A DNA stretch of 64,000 nucleotides, taken from IMG/VR virus record IMGVR_UViG_3300007346_007557; one strand, given 5' to 3'. Positions within the stretch are counted from its first letter, which is position 1; each line of letters opens with the position of its first letter. The translations under genes were made by a program, and so were the position numbers. Positions 1 to 30,952 of this stretch are shown here, in pieces. The notes below the pieces were generated by a model. That model saw only the letters and a program-made list of their open reading frames with translations. It had not been told where the DNA came from and did no database searches. The DNA is from an uncultured virus (IMG/VR IMGVR_UViG_3300007346_007557) (lineage: Duplodnaviria; Heunggongvirae; Uroviricota; Caudoviricetes).

Positions 1-288
1 ATTGTGTTAAATGATTTATATTCAAAACATAATTTTAGTGCGTTTATAATTAAGAAATTTTTAAAATATCATTTTGACGAAACTTATTATTTAGATATGT
101 ATCAATGTTGGTTTGAAAAACTTAAATCTTTTAATAATTGTGTACACATAAAACATTTAAATATACCTATTGATGTAGATATAGACTTTCATAAGTATTG
201 GCTAAGTAATCGAGGATTTATAAATCATTACAATAGTCTTGGTAATCAACATATTTTTGAAATACTGGATGAACATTTAAAAGGTTAG
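1..288 (+). CDS. 3' part of a hypothetical protein entering from outside the window, possibly an SGNH-hydrolase-like C-terminus
   Basis: Frame is open from the window edge. It ends NHYNSLGNQHIF, resembling the H-x4-G-N helix at the end of SGNH/GDSL proteins. It overlaps the convergent radical SAM gene by 71 nt. Confidence 0.45.
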   Translation: MVLNDLYSKHNFSAFIIKKFLKYHFDETYYLDMYQCWFEKLKSFNNCVHIKHLNIPIDVDIDFHKYWLSNRGFINHYNSLGNQHIFEILDEHLKG

Positions 289-1291
289 TTTTTCTACTTT
301 TATCTAAAATTTTATTTACTTTAAAAAATTCTTCTAAATTTGTGTATTCATTTGTACATTCAATTTTAATTAATTTTGAAAGCCTATCGTTTGAAATTTG
401 TTTTAAAATTTGCTCTGCCTCGTATTTACTCCATTGACCTGTGCGTAAATATTTAGGTAAATTAACCGTGTCAAAATGCACATTCCAATTTGGAAAATTA
501 TTTTTTATAAAATTTAATATTTCTGGCATTCTGTGTAAATTTAATGCATTTAATACAACATGAAATGTCAATATAAAATTATATTCATTTAATTTATTAC
601 AGGTGTTTATAACTTGTTCAAAGTTTCCACCTGTTCTAAAATATTCAAATCCTTCAAATACATCATCTAAACTTACACTTACTATAACATTTTTTGCACG
701 TTTCCAAATATCTAATATTTCTTTTTTTGGCAGCACACTTCCATTTGTTGTATATTCAAATGTAACTTGTTCAACATTTTTTATTCTTAACAATAATTCA
801 TCGTGAGATTTATTAAGTAATGGTTCACCACCTAAAAATTTGTAGTATTTTATATCATCTAGGTTATTAATCTTTTCAATATCAAATACAACTAATTTTT
901 TATTAGGCAAAGGTCTACCTAACAATTTATCGTCTTCATACCATTTACTACTACTAAAACTATTACAATGTCTACAAGAATAATTACAATGGTTACTAAA
1001 TGCAAGTTCTATACTTTGTAATTTTGATTTCCATTTGCCTTTAGACGAAAATTGTTGCCGCATACTTTCTACATTGGCATCTTCATCATGCCAACACTTC
1101 CTGCAACCGTCAATCTTTATACCATCCTGTAACTGAGATCGTATTTCTCCTATCCAAGGTCCATTAAAAATATTATGTAAATTATCATCTGCAATATTAG
1201 GACCTTCAGTTTTTTTGTAACGAGTACAAGGTAATACTCTGCCAGAAGTAGTAACAGCAACGTGATTTTCACTTAGCCAACAGCGTGTCAT
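218..1291 (-). CDS. Radical SAM protein with N-terminal Twitch/SPASM-like Cys domain
   Basis: CNYSCRHC (CxxxCxxC), GGEPLL, TTNGS, SLDD; N-terminal C..GRVLPC..GCRKCW. Confidence 0.9.
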   Translation of the reverse strand: MTRCWLSENHVAVTTSGRVLPCTRYKKTEGPNIADDNLHNIFNGPWIGEIRSQLQDGIKIDGCRKCWHDEDANVESMRQQFSSKGKWKSKLQSIELAFSNHCNYSCRHCNSFSSSKWYEDDKLLGRPLPNKKLVVFDIEKINNLDDIKYYKFLGGEPLLNKSHDELLLRIKNVEQVTFEYTTNGSVLPKKEILDIWKRAKNVIVSVSLDDVFEGFEYFRTGGNFEQVINTCNKLNEYNFILTFHVVLNALNLHRMPEILNFIKNNFPNWNVHFDTVNLPKYLRTGQWSKYEAEQILKQISNDRLSKLIKIECTNEYTNLEEFFKVNKILDKSRKTNLLNVHPVFQKYVDYQDYCNDL

Positions 1292-2433
1292 AGATATCTC
1301 TCAAAATAAGGATGAACATCAAGTAAATGTGTATTTCTACTTTTGTCTAGTAATTGGTTTGTTTCAAGTAATCTTGTAAAGTTGCATTTATCACTAGTAC
1401 AAGACGCTTTTAATAATTTTACAATTTTACTTATGTTACGTTTTTTATGATCATTTAACAAACTATCTAACGGTATGCTTTTATCTATTTCTTGAAGTTT
1501 ATATATTTGGTGTCCAGCATGTTGATGACTCCACTGCGAAATATCTAAGTATGCAGGATGTATAATTTTATCAAATGTAAAATGCCAATTAGGAAAATTG
1601 TCTAACATAAACTGCACAATTTCATCTAGGTTATACAAATTTAATACATTAATACAACAATGTATATTACACCACATGTAATGGTGCTGTTGACGTAGTT
1701 CTTCAAACTTATGCATAGTATCTTGTATTGTGTTAAAGTTGCTATCTGTTCTAAAATAATCGCTTCTATCAAATATGTCATCAAGGCTTACAATTATGTG
1801 TAAACTTTTTGCACGTTTCCATAATTCTACAATTTCGTCGTCTGGCCATATACTACCGTTTGTAACATATTCTAAATTTATATTTTCAATGTCTATACTT
1901 TGTAATAATTTTTTATGTTGTTTACTAAGCAGAGGTTCGCCTCCAAGCATTTTTATGTGTTCTAAGTTTACAAGTTTATCTAATTCTAAACTTTCTACAT
2001 CTGGTTCAAGCAGTAATCGTTCTGGTACAGGATTACCCAGCATTATATCATCTTCTTTCCAACGACTACTATTAAAAGTATTGCAATGTCTACATTTGTA
2101 ATTGCAATGATTACTAAATGCAATTTCTAAACTATGTATTTTTTCATATGTTGAATAATTTTCTAATAAAGAAAAGTCACGTTCTTTATTATACTGAACA
2201 CGCATACTTAAAATGTTGTTTTCTTCCTGCATCCAACATTTACTACAACGTTTGTGTTTATTACCATTACGTAAACTATTTCTTAGTTCTTCAAGTTCTT
2301 CATTTTGGAATATATTTTTTATTTTATCATCAAAATTAACATTCCATTTGTTCTGCTTGAATCTACAGCAAGGTAAAACTTTGCCTACAGGAGTAATTGC
2401 TAAGTGTGTTTCGCTTAACCAACATCTACTCAA
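1288..2433 (-). CDS. Radical SAM protein with N-terminal Twitch/SPASM-like domain; close paralog of 218..1291
   Basis: CNYKCRHC, GGEPLL, VTNGS; N-terminal C..GKVLPCC..CSKCW. Confidence 0.9.
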   Translation of the reverse strand: MSRCWLSETHLAITPVGKVLPCCRFKQNKWNVNFDDKIKNIFQNEELEELRNSLRNGNKHKRCSKCWMQEENNILSMRVQYNKERDFSLLENYSTYEKIHSLEIAFSNHCNYKCRHCNTFNSSRWKEDDIMLGNPVPERLLLEPDVESLELDKLVNLEHIKMLGGEPLLSKQHKKLLQSIDIENINLEYVTNGSIWPDDEIVELWKRAKSLHIIVSLDDIFDRSDYFRTDSNFNTIQDTMHKFEELRQQHHYMWCNIHCCINVLNLYNLDEIVQFMLDNFPNWHFTFDKIIHPAYLDISQWSHQHAGHQIYKLQEIDKSIPLDSLLNDHKKRNISKIVKLLKASCTSDKCNFTRLLETNQLLDKSRNTHLLDVHPYFERYL

Positions 2434-3418
2434 TTTTGTTATATCCTTGACAACTTACACATCGAACAATTTCTTTATCTTTCCATTTTTTTGGTAATAT
2501 ATCTGTATAATATGTATTATTAAGAATTTCTTGTAATTTATTTTTGTTAATAGAATTAAATTTCCATAAATCTGTAAGTCTTTCTTTGCGTTCCATATTA
2601 CCAAAGATATCTAATGTAAAGTAACAGCAAGGATATATTCTTCCATACATGTCTATTTGTACTCTATTATCTTGTGCCCACGGACAAACACTTTTGCTTT
2701 TTATAAAATCTACTTGTACGTCAGGTTGAAAGTTAAAACGATCTGACAAATCTTTAACAACATTTTTTTCTGGTGCAGTTATAGTTTGTGCAGGAAAATC
2801 TTTATATAGTTTCATTTCAATTGTTTTTGAAATACTACGATTTAATTTAAATTCTTTAAAACCATATTCTTTTGCTAGTTTTGCTGCCTGCTCTACTTGA
2901 TCTATATTATGATCAAAAACAATGTAACGCCATACAGCATACCCGCCGGCATCAATAAAACTTTTTGCATTGCTAATTACATTATTAAAATTTACACCTC
3001 TGCGATATTGCGGTGCAGTATCCTCTAAACCATCTACTCCAAAAGTTATATTGTGCAAAGCAAACTTGTTTAAAACTTTGCTAAGTTGTTTATAAAATTC
3101 TGGAGTTCTCGCACCGCCATTAGTGTGTATACTTACAAACATTTTATCTTTAACTTGTGCTAAGTGTTCTAAAAATTCTAGCAATAATGGATGCATTGTT
3201 GCATCACCGTAATTTCCATTAAAAATAATTTGTTTAATATTTCTTAAATTATCTTCTGTAGCTAGTTTAAACCATGTAGCTGGTTGCATATGATGTAGTT
3301 CCAACCGTGGATGATTTTCGCCACCTTGAACATTTCTACTGCATTCGCCGCAAAAGCTGTTGCAATAGCTAGTAACATCAATAGCCAAAGATGTTGTTGT
3401 TTCAAAAGAAAAACTCAT
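2426..3418 (-). CDS. Radical SAM protein with C-terminal SPASM/Twitch domain
   Basis: CNSFCGEC near the N-terminus, GNYGD, HTNGG, GVDG; C-terminal CPW..GRIYPCC..CVSC. Confidence 0.9.
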   Translation of the reverse strand: MSFSFETTTSLAIDVTSYCNSFCGECSRNVQGGENHPRLELHHMQPATWFKLATEDNLRNIKQIIFNGNYGDATMHPLLLEFLEHLAQVKDKMFVSIHTNGGARTPEFYKQLSKVLNKFALHNITFGVDGLEDTAPQYRRGVNFNNVISNAKSFIDAGGYAVWRYIVFDHNIDQVEQAAKLAKEYGFKEFKLNRSISKTIEMKLYKDFPAQTITAPEKNVVKDLSDRFNFQPDVQVDFIKSKSVCPWAQDNRVQIDMYGRIYPCCYFTLDIFGNMERKERLTDLWKFNSINKNKLQEILNNTYYTDILPKKWKDKEIVRCVSCQGYNKIE

Positions 3419-4731
3419 AGATATTTTCCAAGACTTGGCACTACTTCTATTATACTTTCGTTTCTAATTTTGTCAAGTGAGTAGGTATAATTTAAAAATT
3501 CATCCCATTGTTCATTATACGACTCGCTATTCATATAATTACAAACACCATTTTTAACACTCTCTGCAGCAATAACATATTTCCTATCATAATTTTTTTC
3601 CGCAACCCAAAGAACAAAATCTTCAAATTTTTGTGTTATTTCTTGTTTGTATTCGTCTGGTAATACTCTTATGTTCAAATGGGGAGGGTTGTGTGCTACA
3701 TGATATGTAATAATAGGCTTAATAGCACTACTATTAATTTTTACAAAATTACTTTTTTCTAATTTCCATTTCATAAAATCAATCATATGTTCTACATTAT
3801 ATGCAGTAACGGTAAACGCTATCCATGCTTTAATATTTTTTGGAAGTTCGTCAATGGTTTTTAAATTTTTTAAAACTTTTGTCCATTTTACTGGATGCCT
3901 TTGATATTCTAATACAGAACCCATGCCGTCGATACTAACACCTAATCTAACTTCCTTAAATTGTGTCCATAGTTTTACAACTCTAGGTGGCAAGGTTGTT
4001 CCATTAGTATTATATTCTAACATAATTTTTTCTGCGTAGCCGCTATCAATACATTTTTGTAAAAATTCGTAATGACGCTCAATCAACATTGGTTCGCCAC
4101 CTGCAAAATAAACATGCTCCATGTATTCAATGTTGTTTTCTAGTTGTGTCCAAAACATTTCGCTACTTGGCCAATCAAAATCAGCAGCGCAAAGTTTGCC
4201 ATTTACTTCTTCTATAGTAATTTCGCCGCTAGTATCTCTAAAAGTATTTTTTCCAGTTAATTTAAGCCAATCTTCAAACCATGCATTACTATCACTAGGT
4301 CCGCACATTCTACATTTCAAATTACAAAAGTTGCCAAAACGTAAATCATAGTAACGTGTAGGAGATTTATTTACATCAATACTTCCATCTGGTTTTGTAC
4401 TTTTAAGTGCGTCTACGATACTAAATTTCCACTGAACACGTTCGTATTGTCTTCTACTTGTAAGTTTATTTTCTTCTTCTTGCCTACATCTGCCACACTC
4501 ATCGCTCCATTTACTGCTTAACATGTTCTTGCGTATGTCTTTCATTAATTGAGCATTACGTGCTTCGCTTAGGTCGTCTACGCCGGCATTGTAAGCTGTG
4601 CCGTCTTCTTTCCGTACAACACCTCTATTTTTTGTTACATTTGCTTGACAACAAACACGTATATCACCGTTGCTGCGCACAGCTTGAAATATCCAAGGTA
4701 TAGGGCAAAATGTTTTTTCACCTTTTATCAT
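3415..4731 (-). CDS. Radical SAM protein with N-terminal Twitch/SPASM-like domain
   Basis: FCPIPW..GDIRVCC..CGRC; CNLKCRMC; AGGEP; NTNGT; SIDG. Confidence 0.92.
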   Translation of the reverse strand: MIKGEKTFCPIPWIFQAVRSNGDIRVCCQANVTKNRGVVRKEDGTAYNAGVDDLSEARNAQLMKDIRKNMLSSKWSDECGRCRQEEENKLTSRRQYERVQWKFSIVDALKSTKPDGSIDVNKSPTRYYDLRFGNFCNLKCRMCGPSDSNAWFEDWLKLTGKNTFRDTSGEITIEEVNGKLCAADFDWPSSEMFWTQLENNIEYMEHVYFAGGEPMLIERHYEFLQKCIDSGYAEKIMLEYNTNGTTLPPRVVKLWTQFKEVRLGVSIDGMGSVLEYQRHPVKWTKVLKNLKTIDELPKNIKAWIAFTVTAYNVEHMIDFMKWKLEKSNFVKINSSAIKPIITYHVAHNPPHLNIRVLPDEYKQEITQKFEDFVLWVAEKNYDRKYVIAAESVKNGVCNYMNSESYNEQWDEFLNYTYSLDKIRNESIIEVVPSLGKYL

Positions 4732-5879
4732 TAAAATATCTCCGGTACAATATACGGTTCAATCATATTCCATAGTTCTGTATTGTGTGTAAGCCAATGT
4801 TCTTTTCTTATCTTATTAAATTCAGCATCATTGCGCACAAACATGCCAAAATCACCGGGCTGTTCCAATTCATTTAACAACTTTTTCCATATACTTAAAT
4901 TTCTATATTCATACTTTTGTTGTTGCATAGTAATTATATCATAAATTTTTGGTTTTACTTTATCTGGTAAATTTTTTACAGCCATCCAAGTAGGACCGTC
5001 TAGCATGTCTATTTTTAAATCTGCTTCTACACTATCTGCATAATCAATTAATTTATCAAGCACATTAACATTATAAAAACTACACACACTATCTATGCCA
5101 AATGGCTTATCAATTTTACTTACTAAGTTTTCTTTATACCAAAGAAGATTAGAATTTACATTTTTCCATACACTATCTTTACGTAAAAATTCATTTAATG
5201 AACCATATGCATCAATACTTAAATGTAAACTTACATTTTCACATTGTAGTAACAAATCTAAAAGTTCTTTATTAGGAACTAAACTACCATTTGTAACTAA
5301 TAAAATACCTAATTTAGGAAGATTACATTTCTTAAGTATTTTTATAAATTGTTCTTGCTCCATCAAAGGCTCGCCGCCGATTAGTTTTATGAAACGTAAA
5401 TCGGTTAAATCATAATTTTCAATAATACTATTTTTTGCTACAACACCTCTTGGTATTTGATATCCTAATTTTTTAGCATCACTATACCAATGTGTGCTGA
5501 GATCAGGACCGCACATTCTACATTTGTTGTTGCATTTGTTACTAAATGCTAAATCTATGTTTGTAAGTTTTTCCGTATTACCACGTTCAGGAGGAAATGG
5601 TAATCCAAATTCCCAACTTTGATTCATACGTGTACGCATACTGCTACCACTTAATTCTTCATCTTTGTAACAGCCTACACATCCATCTACATAAGCGTCT
5701 TCACGCATTTGTTGTCTTATATATTTTAGGTAAGGATGATTAAATGGATCTGGATGACTAATGTTTAAATCTTTAGGAACAACTTCTTGCCTAAAATAAC
5801 AACACGGAAATATTTGTCCATCAGGACGTATTGCCATATGATGAAATGGCAAATCACATCCATGTTTACGAAGCGTCAT
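4731..5879 (-). CDS. Radical SAM protein with N-terminal Twitch/SPASM-like domain
   Basis: CDLPF..GQIFPCC..CVGC; CNNKCRMC; GGEP; TNGS. Start moved to ATG 5879, which has GGAG upstream, from the track's 5918. Confidence 0.9.
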   Translation of the reverse strand: MTLRKHGCDLPFHHMAIRPDGQIFPCCYFRQEVVPKDLNISHPDPFNHPYLKYIRQQMREDAYVDGCVGCYKDEELSGSSMRTRMNQSWEFGLPFPPERGNTEKLTNIDLAFSNKCNNKCRMCGPDLSTHWYSDAKKLGYQIPRGVVAKNSIIENYDLTDLRFIKLIGGEPLMEQEQFIKILKKCNLPKLGILLVTNGSLVPNKELLDLLLQCENVSLHLSIDAYGSLNEFLRKDSVWKNVNSNLLWYKENLVSKIDKPFGIDSVCSFYNVNVLDKLIDYADSVEADLKIDMLDGPTWMAVKNLPDKVKPKIYDIITMQQQKYEYRNLSIWKKLLNELEQPGDFGMFVRNDAEFNKIRKEHWLTHNTELWNMIEPYIVPEIF

Positions 5880-6426
5880 ACCAAATCTCCGGTTGCATAG
5901 GATCAATACTAAGTTCATTTATATTCAAATGTTTAGGTTGATCAACTATCCATTTAATGTATTCAGCAGCAACATCAATATCCATACACTTTCTGTCAGG
6001 GTGCTTTTCTTGATTATTACTAAGTGTACCAAAACTAATGTAAGTTACTTTTGGACCACTTGCCCAAACACCAGTTAACCCTAATGTATTTGAATAATCA
6101 CGCAACGCTTTCTTTTCCGCATTGTACAACCACGCTCCGCCTTTTTTTACACGATCAGTTGTACTACCAATATTAATAATATGACAATTATGTTTTTCTA
6201 AAATGCATTTTTTGTAAACAATATCTAATAAACTTGTTTGTGTAAATCTAAATAATGCACTACAATTAACAAAAACATCATGACGTAACACAGCTTCAGC
6301 ACAACGTTCCATGTCAAGTTTTTTACCAAAGTCGTAACCTGTATCTCTACTAATAAATTCAGCGTCTGGATATAGTTTAGCAAGTGCTCCTGCTACTCCT
6401 ACGTCTTTATTACCTGTTATAATCAT
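5866..6426 (-). CDS. Short-chain dehydrogenase/reductase (SDR)-like oxidoreductase
   Basis: N-terminal IITG..GV Rossmann start, VNCS, IINIGS, catalytic YxxxK (YNAEK). Confidence 0.8.
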   Translation of the reverse strand: MIITGNKDVGVAGALAKLYPDAEFISRDTGYDFGKKLDMERCAEAVLRHDVFVNCSALFRFTQTSLLDIVYKKCILEKHNCHIINIGSTTDRVKKGGAWLYNAEKKALRDYSNTLGLTGVWASGPKVTYISFGTLSNNQEKHPDRKCMDIDVAAEYIKWIVDQPKHLNINELSIDPMQPEIWYDAS

Positions 6427-7564
6427 TCATTACCCCTAACTCAATATGATTGCCTAGTACATCAAAAAATCTATCTTGTTGCATACTTTTTGGCGCACAC
6501 AATCCGCAGCCACAAGTTTGTTTAGGACAAACAATTGTAGGCAATGAGTTGCTTTCCATTTGTTTTTTTAAGTCAGCAATTAATTTTTTTCCTTCACTGA
6601 TACGTCCTATAGATCCACGCTTACCGTCAAAACGTGCTTGACATGTTTGATGATGATATATTTGATCTGTTTGTTGTTCTAAATGCAAAAAGAACCAGTT
6701 CACACTGCAATTCCAACCTTTGAATTCTCTAAAGTCTACAAAGTTGCTTTTGCGTGACTCACTGCCGTTGTGTAACAACATGTCTCTACTGCCACAACAG
6801 GGTCTTCCAATGCTGTTGCCCAATTTTTTTGCATTTTTTACCACATCACCAGCAGCACTATTAGCATATGTTGCATCATTTTTTTGTTTCCAGTAGTTTT
6901 TCATCCATGCTAATTGTTCTTCGCTATACTTATGTGCAAATGTAGGTTTACTATCTGGCTCTTCACCTATTACTCTTGGTACAAAATCAACATTATGCTT
7001 CTGTAAAAACTCAACAAGTTCAACACATTCATCAAAATATTCAGCATGAAACATAACATTTACACTACAAGTAAAGTCGAGCATATCTCCTTGATAATGA
7101 AATTGTAAAATTCTATCTTTAACTTGTTCTTTGAGCTTATCATCGCTTTCTGCATGATAACTTACCGTTGCATGACCAAAATTGTTCATTACAGCATAAC
7201 CCATTTTTTCACTCATAGCACCATTTGTTGTCAGTGCAAATCCAGCTTCCCATTTATCTGAGTATTTCTTTTCGTATGTATCTCGTAAATATTGCGCAAA
7301 TGGTATAAAATTAGGATTAACCGTTGGTTCGCCTCCTGTAAATCCAAAATTTGCTTCTTTAAAATTCCTATACGTCATATACAAGTCAACATATTCAAAC
7401 AAAAAGTCAACATTGTTTTTTAATTCTTCTAAAGTTGCATGTTTGCTAAAATTATCGTGTCTATGCGCTGGACAATATGTGCAATCATAATTGCATCTAC
7501 GTCCAGTATCCCATGTAACTTGAAAAACTTTGCCTGTTAACAGGTCAATTGTATCAAAACTCAT
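6410..7564 (-). CDS. Radical SAM protein with Cys-rich C-terminal extension
   Basis: CNYDCTYC, TGGEP, TTNG, SYH; C-terminal PCCG..CSVNW..CQA..CPKQTCGCGLC. Confidence 0.9.
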   Translation of the reverse strand: MSFDTIDLLTGKVFQVTWDTGRRCNYDCTYCPAHRHDNFSKHATLEELKNNVDFLFEYVDLYMTYRNFKEANFGFTGGEPTVNPNFIPFAQYLRDTYEKKYSDKWEAGFALTTNGAMSEKMGYAVMNNFGHATVSYHAESDDKLKEQVKDRILQFHYQGDMLDFTCSVNVMFHAEYFDECVELVEFLQKHNVDFVPRVIGEEPDSKPTFAHKYSEEQLAWMKNYWKQKNDATYANSAAGDVVKNAKKLGNSIGRPCCGSRDMLLHNGSESRKSNFVDFREFKGWNCSVNWFFLHLEQQTDQIYHHQTCQARFDGKRGSIGRISEGKKLIADLKKQMESNSLPTIVCPKQTCGCGLCAPKSMQQDRFFDVLGNHIELGVMNDYNR

Positions 7565-17246: not shown

Positions 17247-17252
17247 TGTTTT

Positions 17253-20641: not shown

Positions 20642-20642
20642 T

Positions 20643-22939: not shown

Positions 22940-22945
22940 ACTATA

Positions 22946-22974: not shown

Positions 22975-22984
22975 GTTTAGAATT

Positions 22985-22992
22985 GATAAATA
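22985..22992 (+). promoter_or_regulatory. T4-type late promoter box
   Basis: GATAAATA upstream of 23012. Confidence 0.6.
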
Positions 22993-23011
22993 GTTTGTAC
23001 GGAGGATTACC

Positions 23012-24439
23012 ATGACAATTATACCAGGTGACGCATATAGAATTGATGTTGTAGGCGCTGATGAACAAGTTATCGTTGACAGCTGGACAAGCCAAGTTAA
23101 AGGCAATGTTGTAACACGTGACGGTGTTTTACAAGTTGACACAACAAACGGAAAAATATATGGTCCATTAGTAGGAGATATTGAAGATATTTCCGGTAAC
23201 ACTATCTTTAATAACGATCTACGTTTATTTACTACTGATATTAAAGGTGATGTACGTAACACAAATGGTAATATTGTTTTAAACAGCGAACAAGCACTAC
23301 TGGTAGGCAACATGCAAGGTAATATGTATGACAGCGAAGGTGTTGTCATGATTAACCATACTACAAAATCAATAGATGCAACAACAATTGTAGCTGATAG
23401 TATTACTGGTACGTTTTACGGAACTCTTAACACAACAGGTACAATTAGAGGTAACTTAATTGGTAATGTTGTTGGCGATGTTACTGGAGAAGTTACTGGA
23501 AATACAACCGGACATCACTTTGGTAATGTAGACGGTAATGTTACGGGTGATGTTACTGGTAACGTTACCGGAGATTTGTACGGACAAATTATGGCTGTAC
23601 AAAGAGATGAAACAGATCCAACCGTACTGATTGCTTACAACGAACATGCAGCTCATAGACAATGGGAAATGAGAGGCGGTATTTCTCATATTGATAATGC
23701 TGGAAAGGGACCTATTTTAGGAATTGGTGCTACACGCACAGATGCATATTTAAAAGCCGATATAGTTGCATATGATGGCACTCCACAGCTAACTTTAACA
23801 CCAACAGAAGACTACGGTCTAGAAGCAGACATTGTAAAAAGTAATTACTTTGGTGCTGTACAAGGCAGGCTAATGGATGGAACAACTGACATTATGACAT
23901 GGGTTGGTAGCACAACTTCGATATATGCTAATAACGGTGTACTACAACTTGGTATGGATTACACAAGTGATATTGAGTTTAATGCAGAAAGTATTGTTAA
24001 AAACTTCAATATATCTGACGGAGATGCAACTGAATTAGTCAACGCTTTTAGAGGAACACCAGAAGCAAAAACAGCATTACAAACATCAGATCCAATGCTT
24101 ATGGTTGCAGCTCTTGGTTATAATGGTGCAGGATTTGTTGATGCAGGACATTTTGGATTCTTTGTTGACAGAAACACTGCTCCTACTTCAACTGATAGTA
24201 GTGTAAAAACAGGGTTTAGTGTTGCACTAGGAACAGGATCTGCAACTCCTATAGCAAATCAAAGCATGAATTTAGAATTTAATAGTGCAGGTGTTTTAGA
24301 AGTTCCTGTTTTTAAAGCCCGTGGTACAAATTTTGCAGCAAGAGATAGTATGACTGCTGAAGCAGGAATGATTATTTTCAATACAAGTAATAATAAATTC
24401 CAAGGATACACAGGTTCTGCGTGGGTTGACTTACACTAA
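23012..24439 (+). CDS. Virion structural/fibre-like protein
   Basis: G(N/D)V(T/V) tetrapeptide repeats; C-terminal ARD..AGMIIFNTSNNKFQGYTGSAW fibre-type motif; GGAGG RBS and GATAAATA box upstream. Confidence 0.65.
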   Translation: MTIIPGDAYRIDVVGADEQVIVDSWTSQVKGNVVTRDGVLQVDTTNGKIYGPLVGDIEDISGNTIFNNDLRLFTTDIKGDVRNTNGNIVLNSEQALLVGNMQGNMYDSEGVVMINHTTKSIDATTIVADSITGTFYGTLNTTGTIRGNLIGNVVGDVTGEVTGNTTGHHFGNVDGNVTGDVTGNVTGDLYGQIMAVQRDETDPTVLIAYNEHAAHRQWEMRGGISHIDNAGKGPILGIGATRTDAYLKADIVAYDGTPQLTLTPTEDYGLEADIVKSNYFGAVQGRLMDGTTDIMTWVGSTTSIYANNGVLQLGMDYTSDIEFNAESIVKNFNISDGDATELVNAFRGTPEAKTALQTSDPMLMVAALGYNGAGFVDAGHFGFFVDRNTAPTSTDSSVKTGFSVALGTGSATPIANQSMNLEFNSAGVLEVPVFKARGTNFAARDSMTAEAGMIIFNTSNNKFQGYTGSAWVDLH

Positions 24440-24453
24440 AATTGTGTTATAAT
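24426..24453 (+). promoter_or_regulatory. sigma70-type promoter, leaderless arrangement, for the AMP ligase
   Basis: TTGACT-16 nt-TATAAT with TGn extension; ATG 5 nt after the -10. Confidence 0.65.
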
Positions 24454-24458
24454 AAAGC

Positions 24459-25520
24459 ATGAAAATTTACATAGATGGTGAACAAATCTCTGAACAATGG
24501 ATTAGCGATTATACACTGAGCAATCCTGTAGATTGTTTTAGTGATAAGCCTGACTGGGAACAGAATGTATTAAAACTACTACACAACTGGTACTGGCAAA
24601 GTGGATATAGTTATGGCTATAGAGGCGATAAATTTTTAAATCTAAGTACAAGTGGCACTACAGGATTTCCACAACATATCGGTCATAGTAAAGAAACTAT
24701 TGAGCAAGCAGTAAATGCAAATATAAAAATTTTAAATTTAGAAAAAAATAGTAAAATACTTAGTTACTATTCACCTCGTGGTATTGCATTCAGTGTATTA
24801 AGTGTATATCTTGCTCTTAAATTAAATTGTGAACTTTACATTGAAACTTTTAAAGGAATTGATTATGTAAATCGTATACATGATATCCGTCCTACACATA
24901 CGCTGTTGTTACCTAATGTTTGGAAAACTTTATACAAACACAAAAAATGGCAGACATTAGATTACAGCAGTGTAAACACACTTATTACAGGAAGTGATTT
25001 TACACCAATAGGAATGCTAGACGAATTACGTGAACATGGCCCAAATAAAGTTTACAATGTGTATGGTAGCACAGAAGTACCTCCTATTGTTTTATACAGC
25101 GAAGAAGAAAATACTTATACAGCAGAAAGTATTGCACCAGGTGCAGAACTAGATATTGTAAATAATCAAATATGCTGTAAATGGAGTAGTCAACCTAATA
25201 TATGGGTAAGTGGTGATTGTGTACAAGGTGATAGAAATCGTTTTACACTTAACGGACGAATGCCAAATATGTTTAAGCAAGATACAATTAGAGTGTATCC
25301 AGAACAAATAGAAAAAGCAGCAGTAGCAGCAGGCGCAGAACTTGCATTATGTCGGCAAGTAGGAAATCAATGCGTGGTCCATTACACCGGACATATAAAA
25401 TATATGGCGGAATTTGTAGAAGAATTTAGATATATTCCTCGCTTTAGATTGCGAGCAGTAAATGAAATAAAAATTGACGATAACTTGAAAAAGATTATAA
25501 GGACACAAACTTTTGTATAG
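24459..25520 (+). CDS. Compact AMP-dependent synthetase/ligase (ANL superfamily)
   Basis: STSGTTGFPQ P-loop, YGSTE, SGD, GR..MFK..RVYPEQIE, C-terminal KKIIR. Confidence 0.8.
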   Translation: MKIYIDGEQISEQWISDYTLSNPVDCFSDKPDWEQNVLKLLHNWYWQSGYSYGYRGDKFLNLSTSGTTGFPQHIGHSKETIEQAVNANIKILNLEKNSKILSYYSPRGIAFSVLSVYLALKLNCELYIETFKGIDYVNRIHDIRPTHTLLLPNVWKTLYKHKKWQTLDYSSVNTLITGSDFTPIGMLDELREHGPNKVYNVYGSTEVPPIVLYSEEENTYTAESIAPGAELDIVNNQICCKWSSQPNIWVSGDCVQGDRNRFTLNGRMPNMFKQDTIRVYPEQIEKAAVAAGAELALCRQVGNQCVVHYTGHIKYMAEFVEEFRYIPRFRLRAVNEIKIDDNLKKIIRTQTFV

Positions 25521-26127
25521 ACTAGAAATATACAACGGCACACAGGATTTGACAGAGTTTTATGCTGGCGCAGAAGCAAAAGGTTTTTACAATAATCATA
25601 ATAAAACGGTACTTATTGACTACATTGACAAACACGAAGATGCTACACTATTTTTAATGTATTACAAAGATAAAGTAGTTGGAACAAGTATAAGTCATAG
25701 TCTACGACAATTGGGTATATTAGGAAAAAACGCACATCGTATTAGTGCAAGGACCTGCGTATTAAATGATTTAATCGATGGCAATCGTGCTCATGCTGTG
25801 CATAACTATCGACACTCGCCAATGAATCATTGGACTAGTCAAATGCTGACTCCAGTTTGTATGCATTACGTAGGATTAGAAAAACCTATGTATATTAGCA
25901 CAAACACAAACGAAGTTGGAAGCCAAAACAAAGTACATCGCATTTGGGCTAAAATAATGCACAATCAAGGATATTTAAAAGACCCTATTGAACTAGAATA
26001 CAAAGGCACTTTCCAAACATTTTGGCGTGTAGATGTAGATTTTTATATTAAAAAACTAAAAGAAAATATGTGGCCTGAAACAGAACTTGCACTAAACGTA
26101 TTTCTTGCAGAGTTCAAAAAAGTCTGA
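25513..26127 (+). CDS. Hypothetical protein, possible GNAT-fold acyltransferase
   Basis: TTG start overlaps the ligase stop; LFLMYYKDKVVG..RISARTCVL hairpin-like pattern is GNAT-like but weak. Confidence 0.4.
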   Translation: MYRLEIYNGTQDLTEFYAGAEAKGFYNNHNKTVLIDYIDKHEDATLFLMYYKDKVVGTSISHSLRQLGILGKNAHRISARTCVLNDLIDGNRAHAVHNYRHSPMNHWTSQMLTPVCMHYVGLEKPMYISTNTNEVGSQNKVHRIWAKIMHNQGYLKDPIELEYKGTFQTFWRVDVDFYIKKLKENMWPETELALNVFLAEFKKV

Positions 26128-27465
26128 CATTTCTGGAAACACTTCTTCGTGATTGACTCCACGTCTACGACCTTGTTCTGCAAAAAAGTTGTGAAAGTCT
26201 TTACGTCCTTGAATAATTTTATCTAATGGATATTCAGTTGTTTCCATATAGTCAACAACACGTCTAAACTTTTCATACTCAATTGTACTAAATGCATCTT
26301 TACGATTATCATCTACATTTTCTTTTATAAATTGCAAATGATCACGCATATAACTCATGTAGTTATTAGGCAAAATGTTAATATCATATTGTAACGGCTC
26401 TTTAAGATGTGGTGTATCAAAACCTAACCGCTGCCATCTGTGTGTTTCTACATCATTATATTTTTTACGCCATTCTAATATTTTTTCTAGTAGTGTGCGA
26501 AATGTTGTTACACTGAAAATGTTGAACGTAATCATTAGTACCATTGGTGCTTGACAATTACGCATAAAATAATCCAAGTTACGTTCAAACACTTCAATGT
26601 CTAATCCGTCTCGTATGTATTCTGCACGTTTGCCCCAAGTGTCAATACTAGTAAACATTTTAAAGCGTCTAATCTTGTTGTTTGTTAACAAATCATTTAC
26701 ACGGTTTGTAAACTTTTCTAACTGCTTTGGTTTTCCACCTAAATTGCTGTTGCAATTAAGCTCTAAGTCAGGCTTAGGATCAGCATCAAGCATATCAAAC
26801 AACCGGTATGTGCTTTGTTGTATAGTAGGTTCTCCACCAGTAATACGCAGTATGTGCAGTTCTTTACTAAGCTCGGGCCACCATCGCCAAAATGCATCTA
26901 AATAAGGATTGTTTTCTTCTTCAAATATTTGAAACCAATCAATATCACATCTGTGATTTTTTACATTTGTGTACGGGCCATGTTGTTTAATTTCTTGATA
27001 GTATCTGCTGCTGGCTTTAGGATGACAATAACCGCAACGGAAGTTACACTCGTTGCCAAATGATACTTCTAAGTATTCTGGATTTACGTCAAACTCTGCA
27101 CCGCCTTCTTTTACTGCTGCTAATCTATGTTTGAAGAAAATAGTTTGGTTACGCTGTTTCCTATCACTAACATAATCTTTGCCAAGTGCTTCAATTTTCC
27201 AGCAATAGTTGCAACCACTAGGCTGTTCGCCACGCATCATAGCAGCACGTTCTTGTTTCTTTTGTGCTGTGTTGTGTATTGCACTTGGATTTTCTAATAA
27301 TGGTGCTGTGTCAATTTTATGGGGAGCAGGATGATAACAACTATGTGTTTCACCTGTTTGAAAATATATGTTGGCATGATACCATTTTGCAAAACAAAAC
27401 GTTGGTGATATTTCTTGTGTTATACCATCGATGCGTTTAATTTCTTCGCTTTCGCTACGCTCCAT
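26092..27465 (-). CDS. Radical SAM protein with N-terminal Twitch-like domain
   Basis: FCFAKW..GETHSC..GCNYCW; CNFRCGYC; TGGEP; NSN; SIDTW. Confidence 0.92.
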   Translation of the reverse strand: MERSESEEIKRIDGITQEISPTFCFAKWYHANIYFQTGETHSCYHPAPHKIDTAPLLENPSAIHNTAQKKQERAAMMRGEQPSGCNYCWKIEALGKDYVSDRKQRNQTIFFKHRLAAVKEGGAEFDVNPEYLEVSFGNECNFRCGYCHPKASSRYYQEIKQHGPYTNVKNHRCDIDWFQIFEEENNPYLDAFWRWWPELSKELHILRITGGEPTIQQSTYRLFDMLDADPKPDLELNCNSNLGGKPKQLEKFTNRVNDLLTNNKIRRFKMFTSIDTWGKRAEYIRDGLDIEVFERNLDYFMRNCQAPMVLMITFNIFSVTTFRTLLEKILEWRKKYNDVETHRWQRLGFDTPHLKEPLQYDINILPNNYMSYMRDHLQFIKENVDDNRKDAFSTIEYEKFRRVVDYMETTEYPLDKIIQGRKDFHNFFAEQGRRRGVNHEEVFPEMSDFFELCKKYV

Positions 27466-28391
27466 TATTGCTCTCTATCTAAAAAGTTTTGACCTTTTGA
27501 TCTATCTGGATTAATATATACCGTTTTGAAGAAACGACTTTGATTACCATTTAATGGCTCAGCTGCAATTGGCAAATCAAGTTCTTCAATCAAACTATAA
27601 CCAAGCGATAATGTATTATCTTCCATTTCGTCTTCGTTGAGATCTTTGCTATTCCAATATTCATTTAACCATTCAAAGTCACGTACATTAACAAAATCCC
27701 AATCAGTACACATTGTTTTGTACAATCCTTCACGTGCGCCGTAGATAGCCCAATCGCCGTTTTCTACATCAGCACCAACCATTAACCACACATACAGACG
27801 ATGTAAATTTTTCCAATGATTTAATCTAAAATTTTCTAGTGTTGGACGTATACCTCTGTCCAATGCCATTTTTACACCTTCGCGGAAACCTGCCCGCCAC
27901 GCTTGTTGGGGTGTAGCGTTATTATAAATTGTGCTAAATGCACCTTCCATTTGTACATATTCTGTATCCCAACAAAAGTCAACTTGTGCATGTGGATTAT
28001 CAGGATCTGCATTTTCGTGTGTACGCATATTTAAAACATGCATTTTAGGCCAACATTTAAGTCCGCCGTTTCCATACATTAATCCATTAATTTTGTTTTT
28101 TGCTTTCCAACTAATAACTTTGTTACTTAAATCAGCATTAACATCAAAATTAATAACTTGTTGTAAAAACTCATCATTAATTTTATTGTCACCATCGACG
28201 GTTATAAATCTATCAGTTTCGCTTAATTCTGCACATGCTTTATGTGCAGCATCACTACCTTTTACACCGTGAACACGTTTTGCCCACGGAACTTTTCTAC
28301 ATAAATCAGAATAATTTTCTTCTGCATTAGGTTCATCATAACTTAAATAAATGATATCATAATCAACAACTCTAAAAACATTATCCATCAA
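27465..28391 (-). CDS. Glycosyltransferase-like (GT-A) protein; paralog of 21881..22939
   Basis: YDIIYLSYDEPNAEEN..AKRVHGVKG..AH..TVDGD..NGLMYGNGGLK..W.AGFRE. Confidence 0.6.
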   Translation of the reverse strand: MMDNVFRVVDYDIIYLSYDEPNAEENYSDLCRKVPWAKRVHGVKGSDAAHKACAELSETDRFITVDGDNKINDEFLQQVINFDVNADLSNKVISWKAKNKINGLMYGNGGLKCWPKMHVLNMRTHENADPDNPHAQVDFCWDTEYVQMEGAFSTIYNNATPQQAWRAGFREGVKMALDRGIRPTLENFRLNHWKNLHRLYVWLMVGADVENGDWAIYGAREGLYKTMCTDWDFVNVRDFEWLNEYWNSKDLNEDEMEDNTLSLGYSLIEELDLPIAAEPLNGNQSRFFKTVYINPDRSKGQNFLDREQ

Positions 28392-28935
28392 CTACCTCAT
28401 ATCCATAAGAATGAAACTTTTTAGTAGTATAGATTGAAAATGGGTTATCGTCAAGTTCAAAATCGTATGCAAACGGAATAGTTTTTGTTTCAAATTGTAT
28501 CATTCTATATAGAATATTAGGATCACCTTTTTTTGTTATACTATAAAAGTGTTTACTTGTATCAACAGGTATATTTTTTTCAAGCATTTGTGTTTCAAAT
28601 TCTTTATCAATCTCTAATACCCATTGATAATTTGATTTATCTTGAATAATTTTTATTTGAGGATTTTCGACATTTGTTTCAATTTCAAACAAAAAAGAAT
28701 TAACATGACTTTCTTCTTGTAATTGTGTTTGATTTTTTAACACAAACTTTTTTTCTAAAAAATCATATTGTACTTTATGACTTGCAAATGAATATTTTCC
28801 TGAAAGTAAATCTTTTACGTCATCAATGTTTACTTCTATAGTATTTGAATCTTGCACAATTTTTTTACCAATTGATAAAATATTGCCATCGTTATCAAAA
28901 GATATCATTCTAGTTTTTTTAACTTTTAAGTCCAT
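28381..28935 (-). CDS. Hypothetical protein
   Basis: Coupled ORF in the operon; no recognised motif. Confidence 0.7.
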   Translation of the reverse strand: MDLKVKKTRMISFDNDGNILSIGKKIVQDSNTIEVNIDDVKDLLSGKYSFASHKVQYDFLEKKFVLKNQTQLQEESHVNSFLFEIETNVENPQIKIIQDKSNYQWVLEIDKEFETQMLEKNIPVDTSKHFYSITKKGDPNILYRMIQFETKTIPFAYDFELDDNPFSIYTTKKFHSYGYEVVDG

Positions 28936-28936
28936 G

Positions 28937-29782
28937 TTAGATTCCTAATAGTTTTTCGTACTTTTTTATAATATCGTCTGTTACAAAATCATCTTCAGTA
29001 TAATGAAACACACCACTTTGACGATAGTTACCAATTGTTAATTTACAATTTTCATCTAAATACACACCTACACGAGATTGCCAGTTGTCTGAAAAATTCT
29101 TGTTCCAATTTTGCACTTTAGGTTTCATGTGTGTAAAGCTAGGATATTGTGTTTTGCTGTTGGTAATAATATTTTCTACATCCATAATTTTTGCAGCAAT
29201 AGATGCATTCAAATCCATACTGCACCATCTTTGTATTTTTTTACCATTTGCTACTGATTTATAAAATGTCATCCAATTATTATTAATCATTTCTAACCAT
29301 GTATAAAACTCATGTGCTAAGTCTGACTTTTTAAAGTAATGTAATCCACAATACAAATTAGGCAAATTATATGTATCCCAACTACGTCTGTAATAATTAC
29401 TTGTTACTTTATCTCCTCTGTATGTATAAACATTACTAGTAAAAAATAAATCATAATTGTTTAAAAAATCAAACCAATCGCTCATATCTTCTAATACAAG
29501 CATATCAGTATCCATTACTATAGTTTCAGTATAAGGAATAGCATGATATATTTTCCATCTATTGCTGATTTTCCAATCTTCATCCGCAGCATGATCTCCC
29601 CAAGGTATTTCAACTACGTGATCAAAAAGATCTTTGTATTTGTTTGGTACTTGATCATTTGTAATAAGACAGATACTTGCGTTACTATTTGTAGTTTTAA
29701 TACTCATAGCAGCAAGACATGCTTGTTGAACATAATCTGTTGTAGAATTTTGTGCCAACATTGTAAAGTTATTCGTTGTCAA
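28937..29782 (-). CDS. Glycosyltransferase-like protein (GT-A, GT8/mannosyltransferase-like)
   Basis: YVQQA..SIK..ICLIT..FDHVV..PYTETIVMDTDML (DxD)..HMK. Confidence 0.65.
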   Translation of the reverse strand: MTTNNFTMLAQNSTTDYVQQACLAAMSIKTTNSNASICLITNDQVPNKYKDLFDHVVEIPWGDHAADEDWKISNRWKIYHAIPYTETIVMDTDMLVLEDMSDWFDFLNNYDLFFTSNVYTYRGDKVTSNYYRRSWDTYNLPNLYCGLHYFKKSDLAHEFYTWLEMINNNWMTFYKSVANGKKIQRWCSMDLNASIAAKIMDVENIITNSKTQYPSFTHMKPKVQNWNKNFSDNWQSRVGVYLDENCKLTIGNYRQSGVFHYTEDDFVTDDIIKKYEKLLGI

Positions 29783-30608
29783 TGATTCTCTCCAAACTAA
29801 ATTTGTTCATAATATGCACGTTTGATCCTTTCATCCGCACTCCTGTGTACTCGCCAAACCGATTTGTTTTTTGAACTAATACTTTAATTTCGTCATCTTT
29901 AATATCAAGTGCAACATCTTTACCAATTGTATAATATTTTTTGCCTGGTAACTTTCCTACAAAATTGCCTGCTTGATATCCGTTCATAATATGTGCTGCA
30001 ATACTAAATGCAAAATCATTTCTAAACACACTACTAGTAAACTGATATACATTTCTATAGTGCCAGTAATTTTCTTCTATGTGTTTAACTAGATCAAAAA
30101 ATATTTTTGTTTCTTTGGTTTTTCTAAAAAAGCAAACCGTTGCCCAATAAAAATCTACACTTGTGTCACTGATGTGTTGAAACTCTGGAGTTTTATCATG
30201 AATACCTAAATGTGTTGCATCTTTATACAACATTAGATCTTTGTGTTGTGTAAAACAATTATTCAAAATATCGTTTGATATAATGTAGTCAGTATCCATA
30301 ATAATTGTTTGATCATATGGAGTTAAATCATATGCAGATGCTCGGTGTTTATTATGAAATGGTAAAACTTGATTATGTAAGTCTCCGTCATAATGTCTAC
30401 GACTAGAGCTGTTTTGCTTTAGCATTGCAAAAACAATGTTATCAAAATTTTCTACATATTCGGGATATTTTTCTTTTACTTTTACATCTGTAACTAAAGT
30501 TACTGGTAAATCCATATATTTTTTTATTCGTTTGGCAAGAAAATTTGCTTGTTTAACATAGTTCATAGACTGGTTATTACTTGCAAATAATAGTACACCT
30601 TTTGTCAT
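29769..30608 (-). CDS. Glycosyltransferase-like protein (GT-A); paralog of 28937..29782
   Basis: GVLLFA..YVKQA..PVTLVT..PYDQTIIMDTDY (DxD)..RNDFAFS..HIMNK. Confidence 0.65.
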   Translation of the reverse strand: MTKGVLLFASNNQSMNYVKQANFLAKRIKKYMDLPVTLVTDVKVKEKYPEYVENFDNIVFAMLKQNSSSRRHYDGDLHNQVLPFHNKHRASAYDLTPYDQTIIMDTDYIISNDILNNCFTQHKDLMLYKDATHLGIHDKTPEFQHISDTSVDFYWATVCFFRKTKETKIFFDLVKHIEENYWHYRNVYQFTSSVFRNDFAFSIAAHIMNGYQAGNFVGKLPGKKYYTIGKDVALDIKDDEIKVLVQKTNRFGEYTGVRMKGSNVHIMNKFSLERIIDNE

Positions 30609-30952
30609 AGATTCATAATACTTTCTACTGATCTATTATTTTTTAGTTCGTTATATCCAAACAAGTATTCATTTGATGCTTCAAAGTATTTTGAATATAC
30701 TTCAGTATTAAATTTTTCTAAATCTTCAACAACAATAGGAATATCGTTGTCATCTACTAAAATAGTGGTATCAACATTCATTGCTGTTAAACTTTGGCAA
30801 AAACTAATCAAATCATGTGTGATAGAAAATTGTCCGCCATTGTAGTAATATACTAAATTTTCTTTATACTTTTCATTTAGTAATCTTTTTTGATTGTTTA
30901 ATGTAACCATATAGTTACTGATATCGAGTGCTTTTTCGAGACGTTCGTCCAT
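30605..30952 (-). CDS. Hypothetical protein (possible tail-fibre assembly/accessory factor)
   Basis: Strong AGGAGG RBS and sigma70 promoter upstream; no certain motif. Confidence 0.7.
   Translation of the reverse strand: MDERLEKALDISNYMVTLNNQKRLLNEKYKENLVYYYNGGQFSITHDLISFCQSLTAMNVDTTILVDDNDIPIVVEDLEKFNTEVYSKYFEASNEYLFGYNELKNNRSVESIMNL

Follow-up and report, generated by a model that had tools for sequence, protein, structure and literature searches.

A hypervariable island of predicted radical SAM enzymes next to the tail fibres of an uncultured jumbo myophage

Introduction

The closest described counterpart of the locus treated here is the host recognition cluster (HRC) of pelagimyophages and cyanomyophages, which, in the accessible parts of the paper describing it, has a mean size of 44.6 kb, is non-syntenic and hypervariable, and lies among the structural genes, with a giant structural gene and the tail fibres upstream of it (Zaragoza-Solas et al., 2020; PMC7029224). 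HRCs are rich in glycosyltransferases, those of family GT8 being the commonest, and radical S-adenosylmethionine (SAM) cassettes are mentioned, though in those same parts they are neither counted nor classified. Here we describe an island of predicted radical SAM genes in a stretch of 64,000 nucleotides from an uncultured virus (IMG/VR record IMGVR_UViG_3300007346_007557; 'the window' below means this whole stretch). It shares with the HRC a hypervariable, fibre-adjacent place in the structural region, GT8-like genes and radical SAM cassettes, but differs in belonging to a jumbo myophage (relatives of about 350 kb), in its 20 radical SAM genes and in a fixed core of four glycosyltransferase-like genes, so that the likeness is one of region type. 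It is best explained as a fibre-adjacent, hypervariable accessory region of an uncultured jumbo myophage, and is an extreme form of a region type for which the literature offers descriptions but no explanation.

Single elements of the island have parallels elsewhere. BtrN, DesII and BlsE are twitch/SPASM radical SAM enzymes that act on carbohydrates or nucleosides, and DesII and BlsE, like the enzymes discussed here, join a radical SAM core to an auxiliary cluster domain and work in sugar-tailoring pathways. In enzymes of the DesII/BlsE/BtrN type, however, the auxiliary domain, where present, is C-terminal, and a pathway has one or two of them, whereas here the domain is N-terminal and the enzymes number twenty. 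PBCV-1 A64R (PDB 2p6w, 2p72, 2p73) offers a likeness of another kind, being a soluble, virus-encoded GT-A transferase and a top fold match of our GT2-like protein 27465–28391, and virion glycosylation has reportedly been described in mycobacteriophages too, by Freeman et al. in 2023. Chloroviruses and mycobacteriophages glycosylate their virions with soluble GT-A transferases encoded next to structural genes and do so without radical SAM enzymes, whereas for the present phage such decoration is a proposal. To our knowledge, twenty radical SAM enzymes in one phage island, all intact and long diverged, go far beyond any characterised pathway.

A first-pass annotation of the window, made from the letters alone, was aware of no characterised system so composed. 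None has indeed been characterised, but the region type is in print, as far as the accessible parts of PMC7029224 go, and the main enzyme family is already catalogued, as NF033640. Term searches of the accessible text of papers on a moraphage (PMC12619734) and on cyanophage S-SCSM2R (PMC12801897) returned no such island, and no paper on NF033640 or on phage radical SAM arrays was found in the literature searched, which lay largely outside subscription journals.

Results and discussion

An island of at least 46 kb

The window corresponds to bases 18816–82815, read on the reverse strand, of a 97,785-bp linear IMG/VR viral contig with a CheckV completeness of about 20%; compared with the matching stretch of that contig, it shows 31 single-base differences in 64,000 (the first at 1942, 3601 and 4588). 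From position 30952 the island runs down to 218, past the start of the window and on to the end of the contig, covering at least 46 kb and 20 radical SAM genes, with its far end off the contig; the 31 kb and 14 radical SAM genes first annotated were therefore an understatement. The 15-kb continuation (L001) adds six radical SAM genes, two FkbM methyltransferases, a nitroreductase and an S8 subtilase-like gene. Nearly all genes between 30952 and 218 lie on the minus strand and abut or overlap, continuing from the fibre genes on the same strand as had been noted.

The neighbourhood is that of a large myophage. A tail module at 31005–63208 comprises three fibre genes, a 4637-aa virion protein and baseplate wedge and hub proteins, and the opposite end of the contig carries genes for the major head protein, prohead protease and portal. 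The wedge protein shares 33–37% identity with its counterparts in jumbo phages of Agrobacterium, Sinorhizobium, Salicola, Pseudomonas and enterobacteria, the best cultured matches, in phages of the first four, being at 35–37%. Because the baseplate is nearest to those of Atu_ph07, Phosso, SCTP-2 and PA5oct-type phages, this is probably not a pelagimyophage of about 150 kb; the figure of about 350 kb for its relatives is derived from CheckV completeness.

Radical SAM enzymes with an N-terminal auxiliary domain

The window holds exactly 14 open reading frames (ORFs) with a CxxxCxxC motif, at 218–27465, which bears out the first count, and six of six further ORFs in L001 carry it as well. Of these, 12 in the window and five in L001 exceed the curated PF04055 cut-off of 29.5 bits, L001:10198–11415 scoring 26.7. 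The two window ORFs that fall below it find other backing, 26092–27465 (23.7 bits) from NF033640 (298.6 bits) and 14034–15092 (16.7 bits) as a clear paralogue of 16164–17246 (30% identity, E 2e-37). The extra cysteines claimed for all 14 are also there, at 8–13 cysteines each; the auxiliary Cys motif is N-terminal in nine, all of which pass NF033640, and C-terminal or otherwise placed in five. Judged by sequence, we regard the island enzymes as predicted radical SAM enzymes.

Most belong to a single family. NF033640 (N_Twi_rSAM; cut-off 170 bits for the whole protein) is passed by 13 of the 20 island proteins, nine in the window and four in L001, with a top score of 423.6 bits, and L001:10198–11415 falls just under at 168.2. 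An alignment of 14 paralogues has C9, C27, C90 and C93 invariant ahead of the invariant C146/C150/C153, the GGE motif being invariant too, and in seven N_Twi proteins the Pfam SPASM model falls at residues 1–94, ahead of the core. The N_Twi auxiliary domain is a putative cluster domain N-terminal to the core, an order that is real but already catalogued as NF033640. The other six proteins have C-terminal Cys-rich parts or fall into other groups, and reached no named equivalog cut-off in an NCBIfam scan.

Paralogues within the island are only 18–41% identical, so we rejected recent tandem duplication and take the set to be old rather than recently amplified. The contrast with cellular genomes is marked: NF033640 is mostly single-copy in those sampled, whereas here there are 13–14 anciently diverged copies. 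This contig has the most radical SAM genes of six records examined. Clustering at 45% identity sorts the 694 CxxxCxxC ORFs of 200 aa or more in related stretches into 136 groups, many of them made up of N_Twi proteins and 46 holding a single sequence; these figures are approximate since some contigs were counted twice.

The most conserved family member in the island is 10537..11937 (minus strand), the source of the 423.6-bit score; its relatives occur in 203 viral-contig stretches, of which the best 80 are 81–100% identical. At the upstream end of the array, 26092..27465 (minus strand) is likewise an N_Twi protein. Five radical SAM genes share 14034..19710 (minus strand) with a small methyltransferase-like gene (17267–17833): 18637–19710 and 15067–16167 are N_Twi, and 17823–18650, 16164–17246 and 14034–15092 have C-terminal Cys-rich parts by Pfam, NCBIfam and paralogy. 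Of these, 16164–17246 is a core gene, 66–67% identical in relatives and present in 77 related loci. Within 6410..10550 (minus strand) lie the N_Twi gene 8371–9699 and the radical SAM gene 6410–7564, both recognised by Pfam and NCBIfam, and 218..6426 (minus strand) holds five more, of which 4731–5918, 3415–4731, 1288–2433 and 218–1291 are N_Twi and 2426–3418 has a C-terminal SPASM domain.

A fixed transferase core and swappable cassettes

Five long relatives of the contig (99–169 kb) have 9–16 PF04055 matches each, against 20 CxxxCxxC ORFs here. In the related records G001, G002 and G004 the island begins in a common order: after the fibres come a 115-aa protein gene, a pair of GT8-like genes, a small gene that varies, one GT2-like gene and an N_Twi radical SAM gene. 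Its far end is marked in all three by a fibre-like gene that runs convergently and encodes an Mtd_N domain. Beyond that gene come DUF2201/VWA, AAA ATPase and 5'–3' exonuclease genes, and NifU was seen in G001. In our contig (G000) the homologue of the island-closing gene (23012–24439, plus strand) lies within the island instead. An assembly chimera with host DNA, raised at first as a caution, was rejected: the fibre–island junction recurs in G001, G002 and G004, phage genes flank the far side, and GC content is alike across the contig. The contig is thus a genuine phage fragment, and the linkage of island to fibre genes, also proposed for checking, holds in the relatives.

Two GT8-like and two GT2-like genes are found in each of the four records, G000 included. 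Together with the 115-aa and 74-aa protein genes they form the island core, around which the radical SAM genes number 9 to 20 and are exchanged in the manner of cassettes. Many enzymes are scarce: an AsnB-like gene and its neighbour 13223–14083 occur in two related loci each, versus 83 for the core radical SAM gene 10537–11937. Among the further genes of relatives' islands are those for class III and IV aminotransferases, for aldehyde dehydrogenase and GNAT proteins, and for an NAD epimerase/dehydratase (E 9e-48) and a CTP_transf_3 cytidylyltransferase.

The four glycosyltransferase-like proteins of the first-pass annotation stand, as two pairs. The GT8-like GT-A paralogues (29769–30608 and 28937–29782, within 28937..30608, minus strand) share an invariant DxD (D105, D107), and the only PDB sequences matched by their family profile were glycogenins (best E 1.5e-5, glycogenin-2). 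The GT2-like protein at 27465..28391 (minus strand), a conserved core gene with 68–71% identity in relatives and invariant D66 and D68, gave an AlphaFold2 (AF2) model with pLDDT 84, for which the top Foldseek matches are ThuS, SunS, TarP and PBCV-1 A64R (E ~2e-4); its GT-A fold aligns 134 residues to B4GALNT1 (VIA Z 10.3, rmsd 2.8, model residues 4–170), and Atlas automatic names for the clusters nearest this family are GT2-like. A second GT2-like protein (21881..23095, minus strand) is its paralogue, 31% identical over 248 aa; the conserved part is the C-terminal ~225 aa, orthologues run from 226 to 447 aa, and the true start probably lies downstream of 23095. By fold and profile we consider all four to be predicted glycosyltransferases, though a transferase of another kind would also fit the fold.

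The cultured Ralstonia phage RsoM2USA was rejected as a smaller version of the system, as it has one homologue of 26092–27465 (RsoM2USA_202, 34.6% identical over 456 aa) and no member of families A1, A2 (GT8-like) or A3 within 14 kb. A metagenome-assembled genome titled Crocinitomicaceae (G006) has seven N_Twi matches over cut-off on five contigs, of which at least L092 (JBDNIA010000282.1) is a phage island fragment. We rejected this genome as host evidence, since the matching contig is itself such a fragment (95% identity to a G001 radical SAM gene), and its N_Twi contigs look like a binning artefact. Fourteen DNA runs contain at least 91% of the sampled sequence words.

A glycan pathway as the proposed function

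We propose that the island encodes a soluble cytoplasmic pathway that would assemble a glycan and then edit it by oxygen-independent radical chemistry. Assembly would be the task of the invariant four GT-A-type transferases, two GT8-like and two GT2-like, and editing that of the swappable radical SAM set, mostly NF033640 enzymes with an N-terminal twitch domain, which may act together with FkbM-type methyltransferases, an AsnB-like amidotransferase, PP-loop ATPases, nitroreductase-like proteins and an ANL ligase. The likeliest acceptor would be the phage's own fibre or virion proteins. This complete scheme, built and radically edited glycan with a fibre or virion acceptor, we put forward tentatively; that the substrate is a sugar, counting virion and host-envelope acceptors together, we hold to be somewhat probable.

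Gene content, folds, conservation, position and the turnover of cassettes are shown by the data; from several lines of evidence we infer the sugar substrate, the radical SAM tailoring and the virion-protein acceptor: the fixed glycosyltransferase core, the two FkbM methyltransferases and AsnB-like gene of this contig, the sugar-nucleotide enzymes of its relatives and the glycan-type setting of some cellular homologues. ThuS, SunS and PBCV-1 A64R, neighbours of the GT2-like fold, glycosylate peptides or capsid protein, and the fold search with the N_Twi model listed the sugar-acting DesII and BlsE as neighbours, which may point the same way. The link to fibres is positional, with the island directly after the fibre genes in all four records (G000, G001, G002 and G004). 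Of the biosynthetic line for decoration first proposed, we keep that it is phage-encoded, linked to the fibre module in position and in evolution, and soluble, and that it has glycan support; its virion-protein target remains a proposal.

A bolder version holds that the fixed four-transferase scaffold lays a sugar chain on the receptor-binding apparatus and that a lineage-wide stock of well over 100 interchangeable radical SAM cassettes rewrites the chain, giving each strain its own decoration; we think this rather unlikely.

Several observations weigh against a virion glycan. The nearest fold neighbours of N_Twi are peptide-modifying enzymes, and the GT-A likeness is generic, the nucleotidyltransferases IspD and MobA scoring nearly as well (Z ~9). 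No nucleotide-sugar-making enzyme is encoded in this contig, such genes being confined to relatives, and no acceptor motif or glycosylated protein is known. Three of six scanned cellular contexts of NF033640 are uninformative or different (two uninformative). The promoters of the island, described below, argue against a virion acceptor, with five perfect sigma-70-type sites and a near absence of TAAATA from its gene-strand genes. For HRCs, finally, the authors favour modification of the host O-chain, in the accessible parts of their paper (PMC7029224).

Peptides or proteins as possible substrates

An AF2 model of 10537–11937 (pLDDT 78) has as Foldseek neighbours CteB, PqqE, SkfB, DesII (rank 6), viperin, BlsE (rank 18) and anSME; BtrN is absent among the neighbours listed. 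As the top neighbours are the peptide-modifying CteB, PqqE and SkfB, the N_Twi fold does not point to sugars, and because the neighbours mix all three classes the search does not separate peptide, sugar and nucleotide substrates.

Radical SAM enzymes might act directly on proteins or peptides, introducing cross-links, epimerisations or methylations into the fibres or into a ribosomal peptide such as the 74-aa protein, with glycosylation as one further step. Most characterised SPASM/twitch radical SAM enzymes modify peptides or proteins, and relatives' islands encode an S8 subtilase, a SET-domain protein and two Asp/Asn-hydroxylase-like proteins, while our contig ends in an S8-like gene; a highly conserved small protein, moreover, follows a helical-repeat and methyltransferase-like protein. 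Yet Pfam and NCBIfam found no RRE/PqqD, and neither a Cys-rich or Ser/Thr-rich repeat peptide nor a leader–core pattern turned up; no small ORF other than that of the 74-aa protein is conserved, and this protein lacks Cys and shows conservation from end to end. N_Twi enzymes also lack the N-terminal peptide-binding domain typical of maturases of ribosomally synthesised peptides, their N-terminus being the putative cluster domain, and what is invariant in the island is the glycosyltransferase set. We consider direct action on proteins or peptides unlikely.

The SET-domain gene, the two Asp/Asn-hydroxylase-like cupins and an S-adenosylmethionine decarboxylase gene of the relatives (L083:9402–9938, plus; L083:16356–16928, minus; L087:17392–18039, plus; L090:9242–9610, plus) are not present in this contig.

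Diffusible products and DNA as possible alternatives

Only two of 50 island proteins have a hydrophobic 19-mer, both resembling Rossmann strands, and a hydrophobicity scan of the 50 proteins found no exporter, flippase or polymerase; the pathway would accordingly be soluble and lack its own export or polymerisation machinery. Solubility throughout would suit a diffusible small molecule, aminoglycoside-, nucleoside- or cofactor-like, acting on the host or its competitors, as would the natural-product-like mix of radical SAM enzymes, aminotransferases, ANL ligase, amidotransferase, nearby halogenase and IMPDH-like gene. We recognised no exporter or self-resistance gene, however; the content differs between phages while the glycosyltransferase core and fibre linkage persist, and a secreted product would bring a lytic phage little gain. 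Such a product seems to us improbable.

Phage glycosyltransferases often glycosylate DNA, and QueC-like PP-loop proteins together with radical SAM enzymes recall 7-deazaguanine pathways, so the target could be phage DNA or the nucleotide pool, with hypermodified bases or glycosylated DNA serving to evade restriction; early-type promoters would fit. In the records, which are genome fragments, neither the island nor its immediate surroundings hold a hallmark hydroxymethylase, kinase or DNA transferase, though, and PF00303 occurs in one of five of them, about 45 kb from the island and with the kind of score that an ordinary ThyA gives. In G004, genes for GTP cyclohydrolase I and for a phosphoribosyltransferase lie outside the island, which itself sits in the structural and not the replication region. 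A DNA target is in our view very improbable.

The PP-loop genes themselves, first described as two QueC-like ATPases, are paralogues (9696–10550 and 7554–8378, within 6410..10550, minus strand; 33% mutual identity) with an SGGADS motif, but support from hidden Markov models (NCBIfam, PHROG) is weak. Each follows and overlaps a radical SAM gene, 10537–11937 then 9696–10550 and 8371–9699 then 7554–8378, which suggests a repeated two-enzyme unit of PP-loop protein and radical SAM enzyme.

Promoters, cellular homologues and the acceptor

Perfect TTGACA-N16/17-TATAAT sites number six in the contig, against 0.28 expected (100 shuffles, maximum 2). Five are in the island, on the gene strand and just upstream of gene starts, and the sixth precedes the late sigma factor gene. 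The first (30975..31003, minus strand; 17-nt spacer) stands 23 nt before the 115-aa protein gene; further 12/12 sites from the motif scan are at 22974–22946, 17280–17253 and 3476–3449 and an 11/12 site at 32097–32069, by a Ser/Thr/Gly-rich gene pair, all on the minus strand. The hexamer TAAATA resembles the T4 late promoter core. Of 32 non-island genes, 11 have it in the 45 nt ahead of them, but only one of 41 island gene-strand genes and two of eight opposite-strand island genes do; it precedes the fibre-like gene 23012–24439 and the opposite-strand block at the window start (1..288). Two records of relatives have a perfect sigma-70-type site in front of their orthologue of the most conserved radical SAM gene, and replication-type genes outside the island have such sites too; AAA ATPase, 5'–3' exonuclease and GTP cyclohydrolase I genes are among the genes so preceded in relatives. 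There, TAAATA stands before all four fibre-like genes and some island enzymes, so that both motif types occur in the island.

Part of the island, at least, is probably read by a host-type polymerase, independently of the late virion operons. Given its sigma-70-type sites and the near absence of TAAATA, tight co-expression with virion genes is not to be assumed. Promoters of Bacteroidota have a consensus unlike the sigma-70 type, and the sites found here argue against a host from that phylum. Four runs gave RNA-library contigs that agree with island genes at every base, and those of three runs start at 23013–23016, the start of the fibre-like gene; such contigs give no strand, level or timing, may reflect DNA carry-over and leave uncovered bins without meaning, so that the shared start is a weak hint.

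As a separate observation, the sixth perfect site (63206–63262, plus strand; 17-nt spacer) lies 22 nt before a gp55-like late sigma factor gene at 63284–64000 (phrog_12791, E 2.7e-68).

Cellular homologues offer a second view of the acceptor. Of 301 genomes sampled from one bacterial order, 29 have NF033640 over cut-off, mostly one copy each, and of 14 control genomes none does. We fetched eight of these loci and scanned six with Pfam, finding glycan-type neighbours in three, L104, L105 and L106 (GT22); L105 has three NF033640 copies together with AsnB, two epimerase/dehydratases, a DXD glycosyltransferase and UbiA. A context with TraB/GumN, an ABC exporter and GT2 recurs in three genomes by ORF layout and was scanned in one of them.

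Promoters and homologues alike lend weight to a host-directed variant, in which the same glycan chemistry would act, on the cytoplasmic side, on a glycan of the host envelope such as the lipopolysaccharide (LPS) core, the O-chain or a capsule precursor. In this way the phage would rewrite its own receptor, for superinfection exclusion or less sticking of progeny to debris, and receptor-editing genes would travel with the fibres. Sigma-70-type promoters suggest expression apart from the late virion programme, cellular N_Twi homologues sit in surface-glycan-type loci, and cassette turnover fits an arms race at the cell surface. GT8, FkbM and AsnB-like enzymes and CMP-sugar cytidylyltransferases are, besides, typical of LPS/O-antigen loci. 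It is also the published reading of GT8-rich HRCs in pelagimyophages, in the accessible parts of PMC7029224. The island encodes no membrane-embedded transferase, flippase, polymerase or ligase, on the other hand, replacement of surface LPS is slow within one lytic cycle, and twenty anaerobic-type Fe–S enzymes are a heavy investment for exclusion. We regard a host-envelope acceptor as possible if doubtful, and between the two acceptors slightly favour the virion fibres.

Other genes of the island

The island opens with the 115-aa protein (30605..30952, minus strand), whose orthologues (39–59% identity) hold the same place in G001, G002 and G004 and which matched nothing in Pfam, PHROG or NCBIfam. 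The variable slot in the core order is filled here by a 184-aa protein (28381..28935, minus strand), likewise without a match in these three collections, whose only counterpart, at 29% identity, is in G002. An opposite-strand block (23012..26127, plus strand) groups the fibre-like gene 23012–24439, 28% identical over 442 aa to the Mtd_N-bearing island-closing proteins of relatives, with 24459–25520 and a 204-aa protein at 25513–26127.

Downstream on the minus strand, the core protein at 20854..21900 (orthologues 40–59% identical) combines a helical-repeat, armadillo-like N-terminus, weakly matching designed armadillo repeat proteins (E 0.0012; no stretch passes alone), with a methyltransferase-like C-terminal domain. 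The 74-aa protein (20643..20867, minus strand), missed by the first-pass annotation, overlaps the stop of the gene upstream and lacks Cys; it is found in 68 related loci as 44 distinct sequences, 69–100% identical and conserved along the whole length, and matches 3215 cluster representatives in a protein database (E <= 1e-3), all unnamed. Next comes a two-domain protein (19703..20641, minus strand), residues 7–144 of which match part of phrog_4527, 'short tail fiber protein' (E 5.9e-8). Against PDB sequences, profiles of families A1 and A6 returned nothing usable, and those of A3 and A5 only short armadillo-repeat-like matches with no stretch passing alone.

The enzyme names proposed at first for these genes fared unevenly. 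The AsnB-like amidotransferase at 11949–13223, which with the 286-aa protein 13223–14083 makes up the rare cassettes at 11949..14083 (minus strand), is secure, with GATase_7 and Asn_synthase in Pfam and TIGR01536 at E 1e-21. The ANL ligase holds for 24459–25520 (AMP-binding, E 1.8e-17), except that the protein is truncated, spanning profile positions 170–377. The nitroreductase call applies to the C-terminus of 19703–20641 and falls below the PF00881 cut-off (E 0.0034), although its paralogue L001:11402–12064 passes. The SDR at 5866..6426 (minus strand) is a weak, fragmentary match (E 0.0018), and the two methyltransferase-like proteins, 17267–17833 and 20854–21900, stay leads; for the latter the Atlas lead Methyltransf_31 is carried by 21% of the nearest named cluster (score 0.94). 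The possible GNAT at 25513–26127 is dropped (E 0.96).

At its other end the window takes in the start (1..288, plus strand) of a three-gene opposite-strand block (L001:29–1918), which continues past the window and has six radical SAM genes beyond it.

Flanking genes

Between fibres and island, two Ser/Thr/Gly-rich paralogues without Cys (31005..33016, minus strand; 29% mutual identity) have counterparts in relatives and are candidate fibre-associated proteins; no PHROG or Pfam family matched them. The three tail-fibre genes (33040..38600, minus strand) have a common N-terminal module and match PHROG tail-fibre and collar-fibre families and the Phage Tail Collar domain. Directly upstream of them, the 4637-aa virion structural protein (39235–53148, minus strand; phrog_10938) contains CBM_5_12, FG-GAP and E1_FCCH domains, and may correspond to VrlC, the giant gene at the boundary of the pelagimyophage HRC. 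A tRNA scan of the window found none.

On the head side of the contig, a 21st radical SAM gene (L002:986–1840, minus strand; 284 aa, phrog_1802, E 1.9e-7) is a neighbour of the gene for the major head protein and lies about 50 kb away from the island. The same region encodes a flavin-dependent tryptophan-halogenase-like protein (L002:13972–15615, minus strand; phrog_2928, E 6e-90), and another such protein is found at the island's far edge in G001 (L088:147–1514, plus strand; PF04820, E 8e-75). A 141-aa ORF (L002:13524–13949, minus strand) matches homing-endonuclease PHROGs and one labelled 'NAD synthetase' (phrog_447, E 8e-37), and adjoins a 465-bp gap without any ORF of 80 aa or more. In G001, a NifU-like Fe–S scaffold gene (L088:10064–10483, minus strand; PF01592, E 2e-53) lies a few kb past the island, adjoining the DUF2201/VWA and AAA ATPase genes; its product may help to load the many Fe–S enzymes.

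Implications

The lineage is abundant in aquatic metagenomes (203 stretches, 3215 representatives, 14 DNA runs), so the product of the island is likely common in nature, and the substrates and reactions of NF033640 appear uncharted. Should the enzymes prove to edit sugars, they would make up a large and new collection of carbohydrate catalysts that work independently of oxygen. An island product that decorates fibres or rewrites receptors would bear on how giant phages set their host range, and if the combinatorial editing outlined above holds, phages would have a new way of tuning host range or evading defences, and the island would be a large reserve of untapped anaerobic carbohydrate chemistry.

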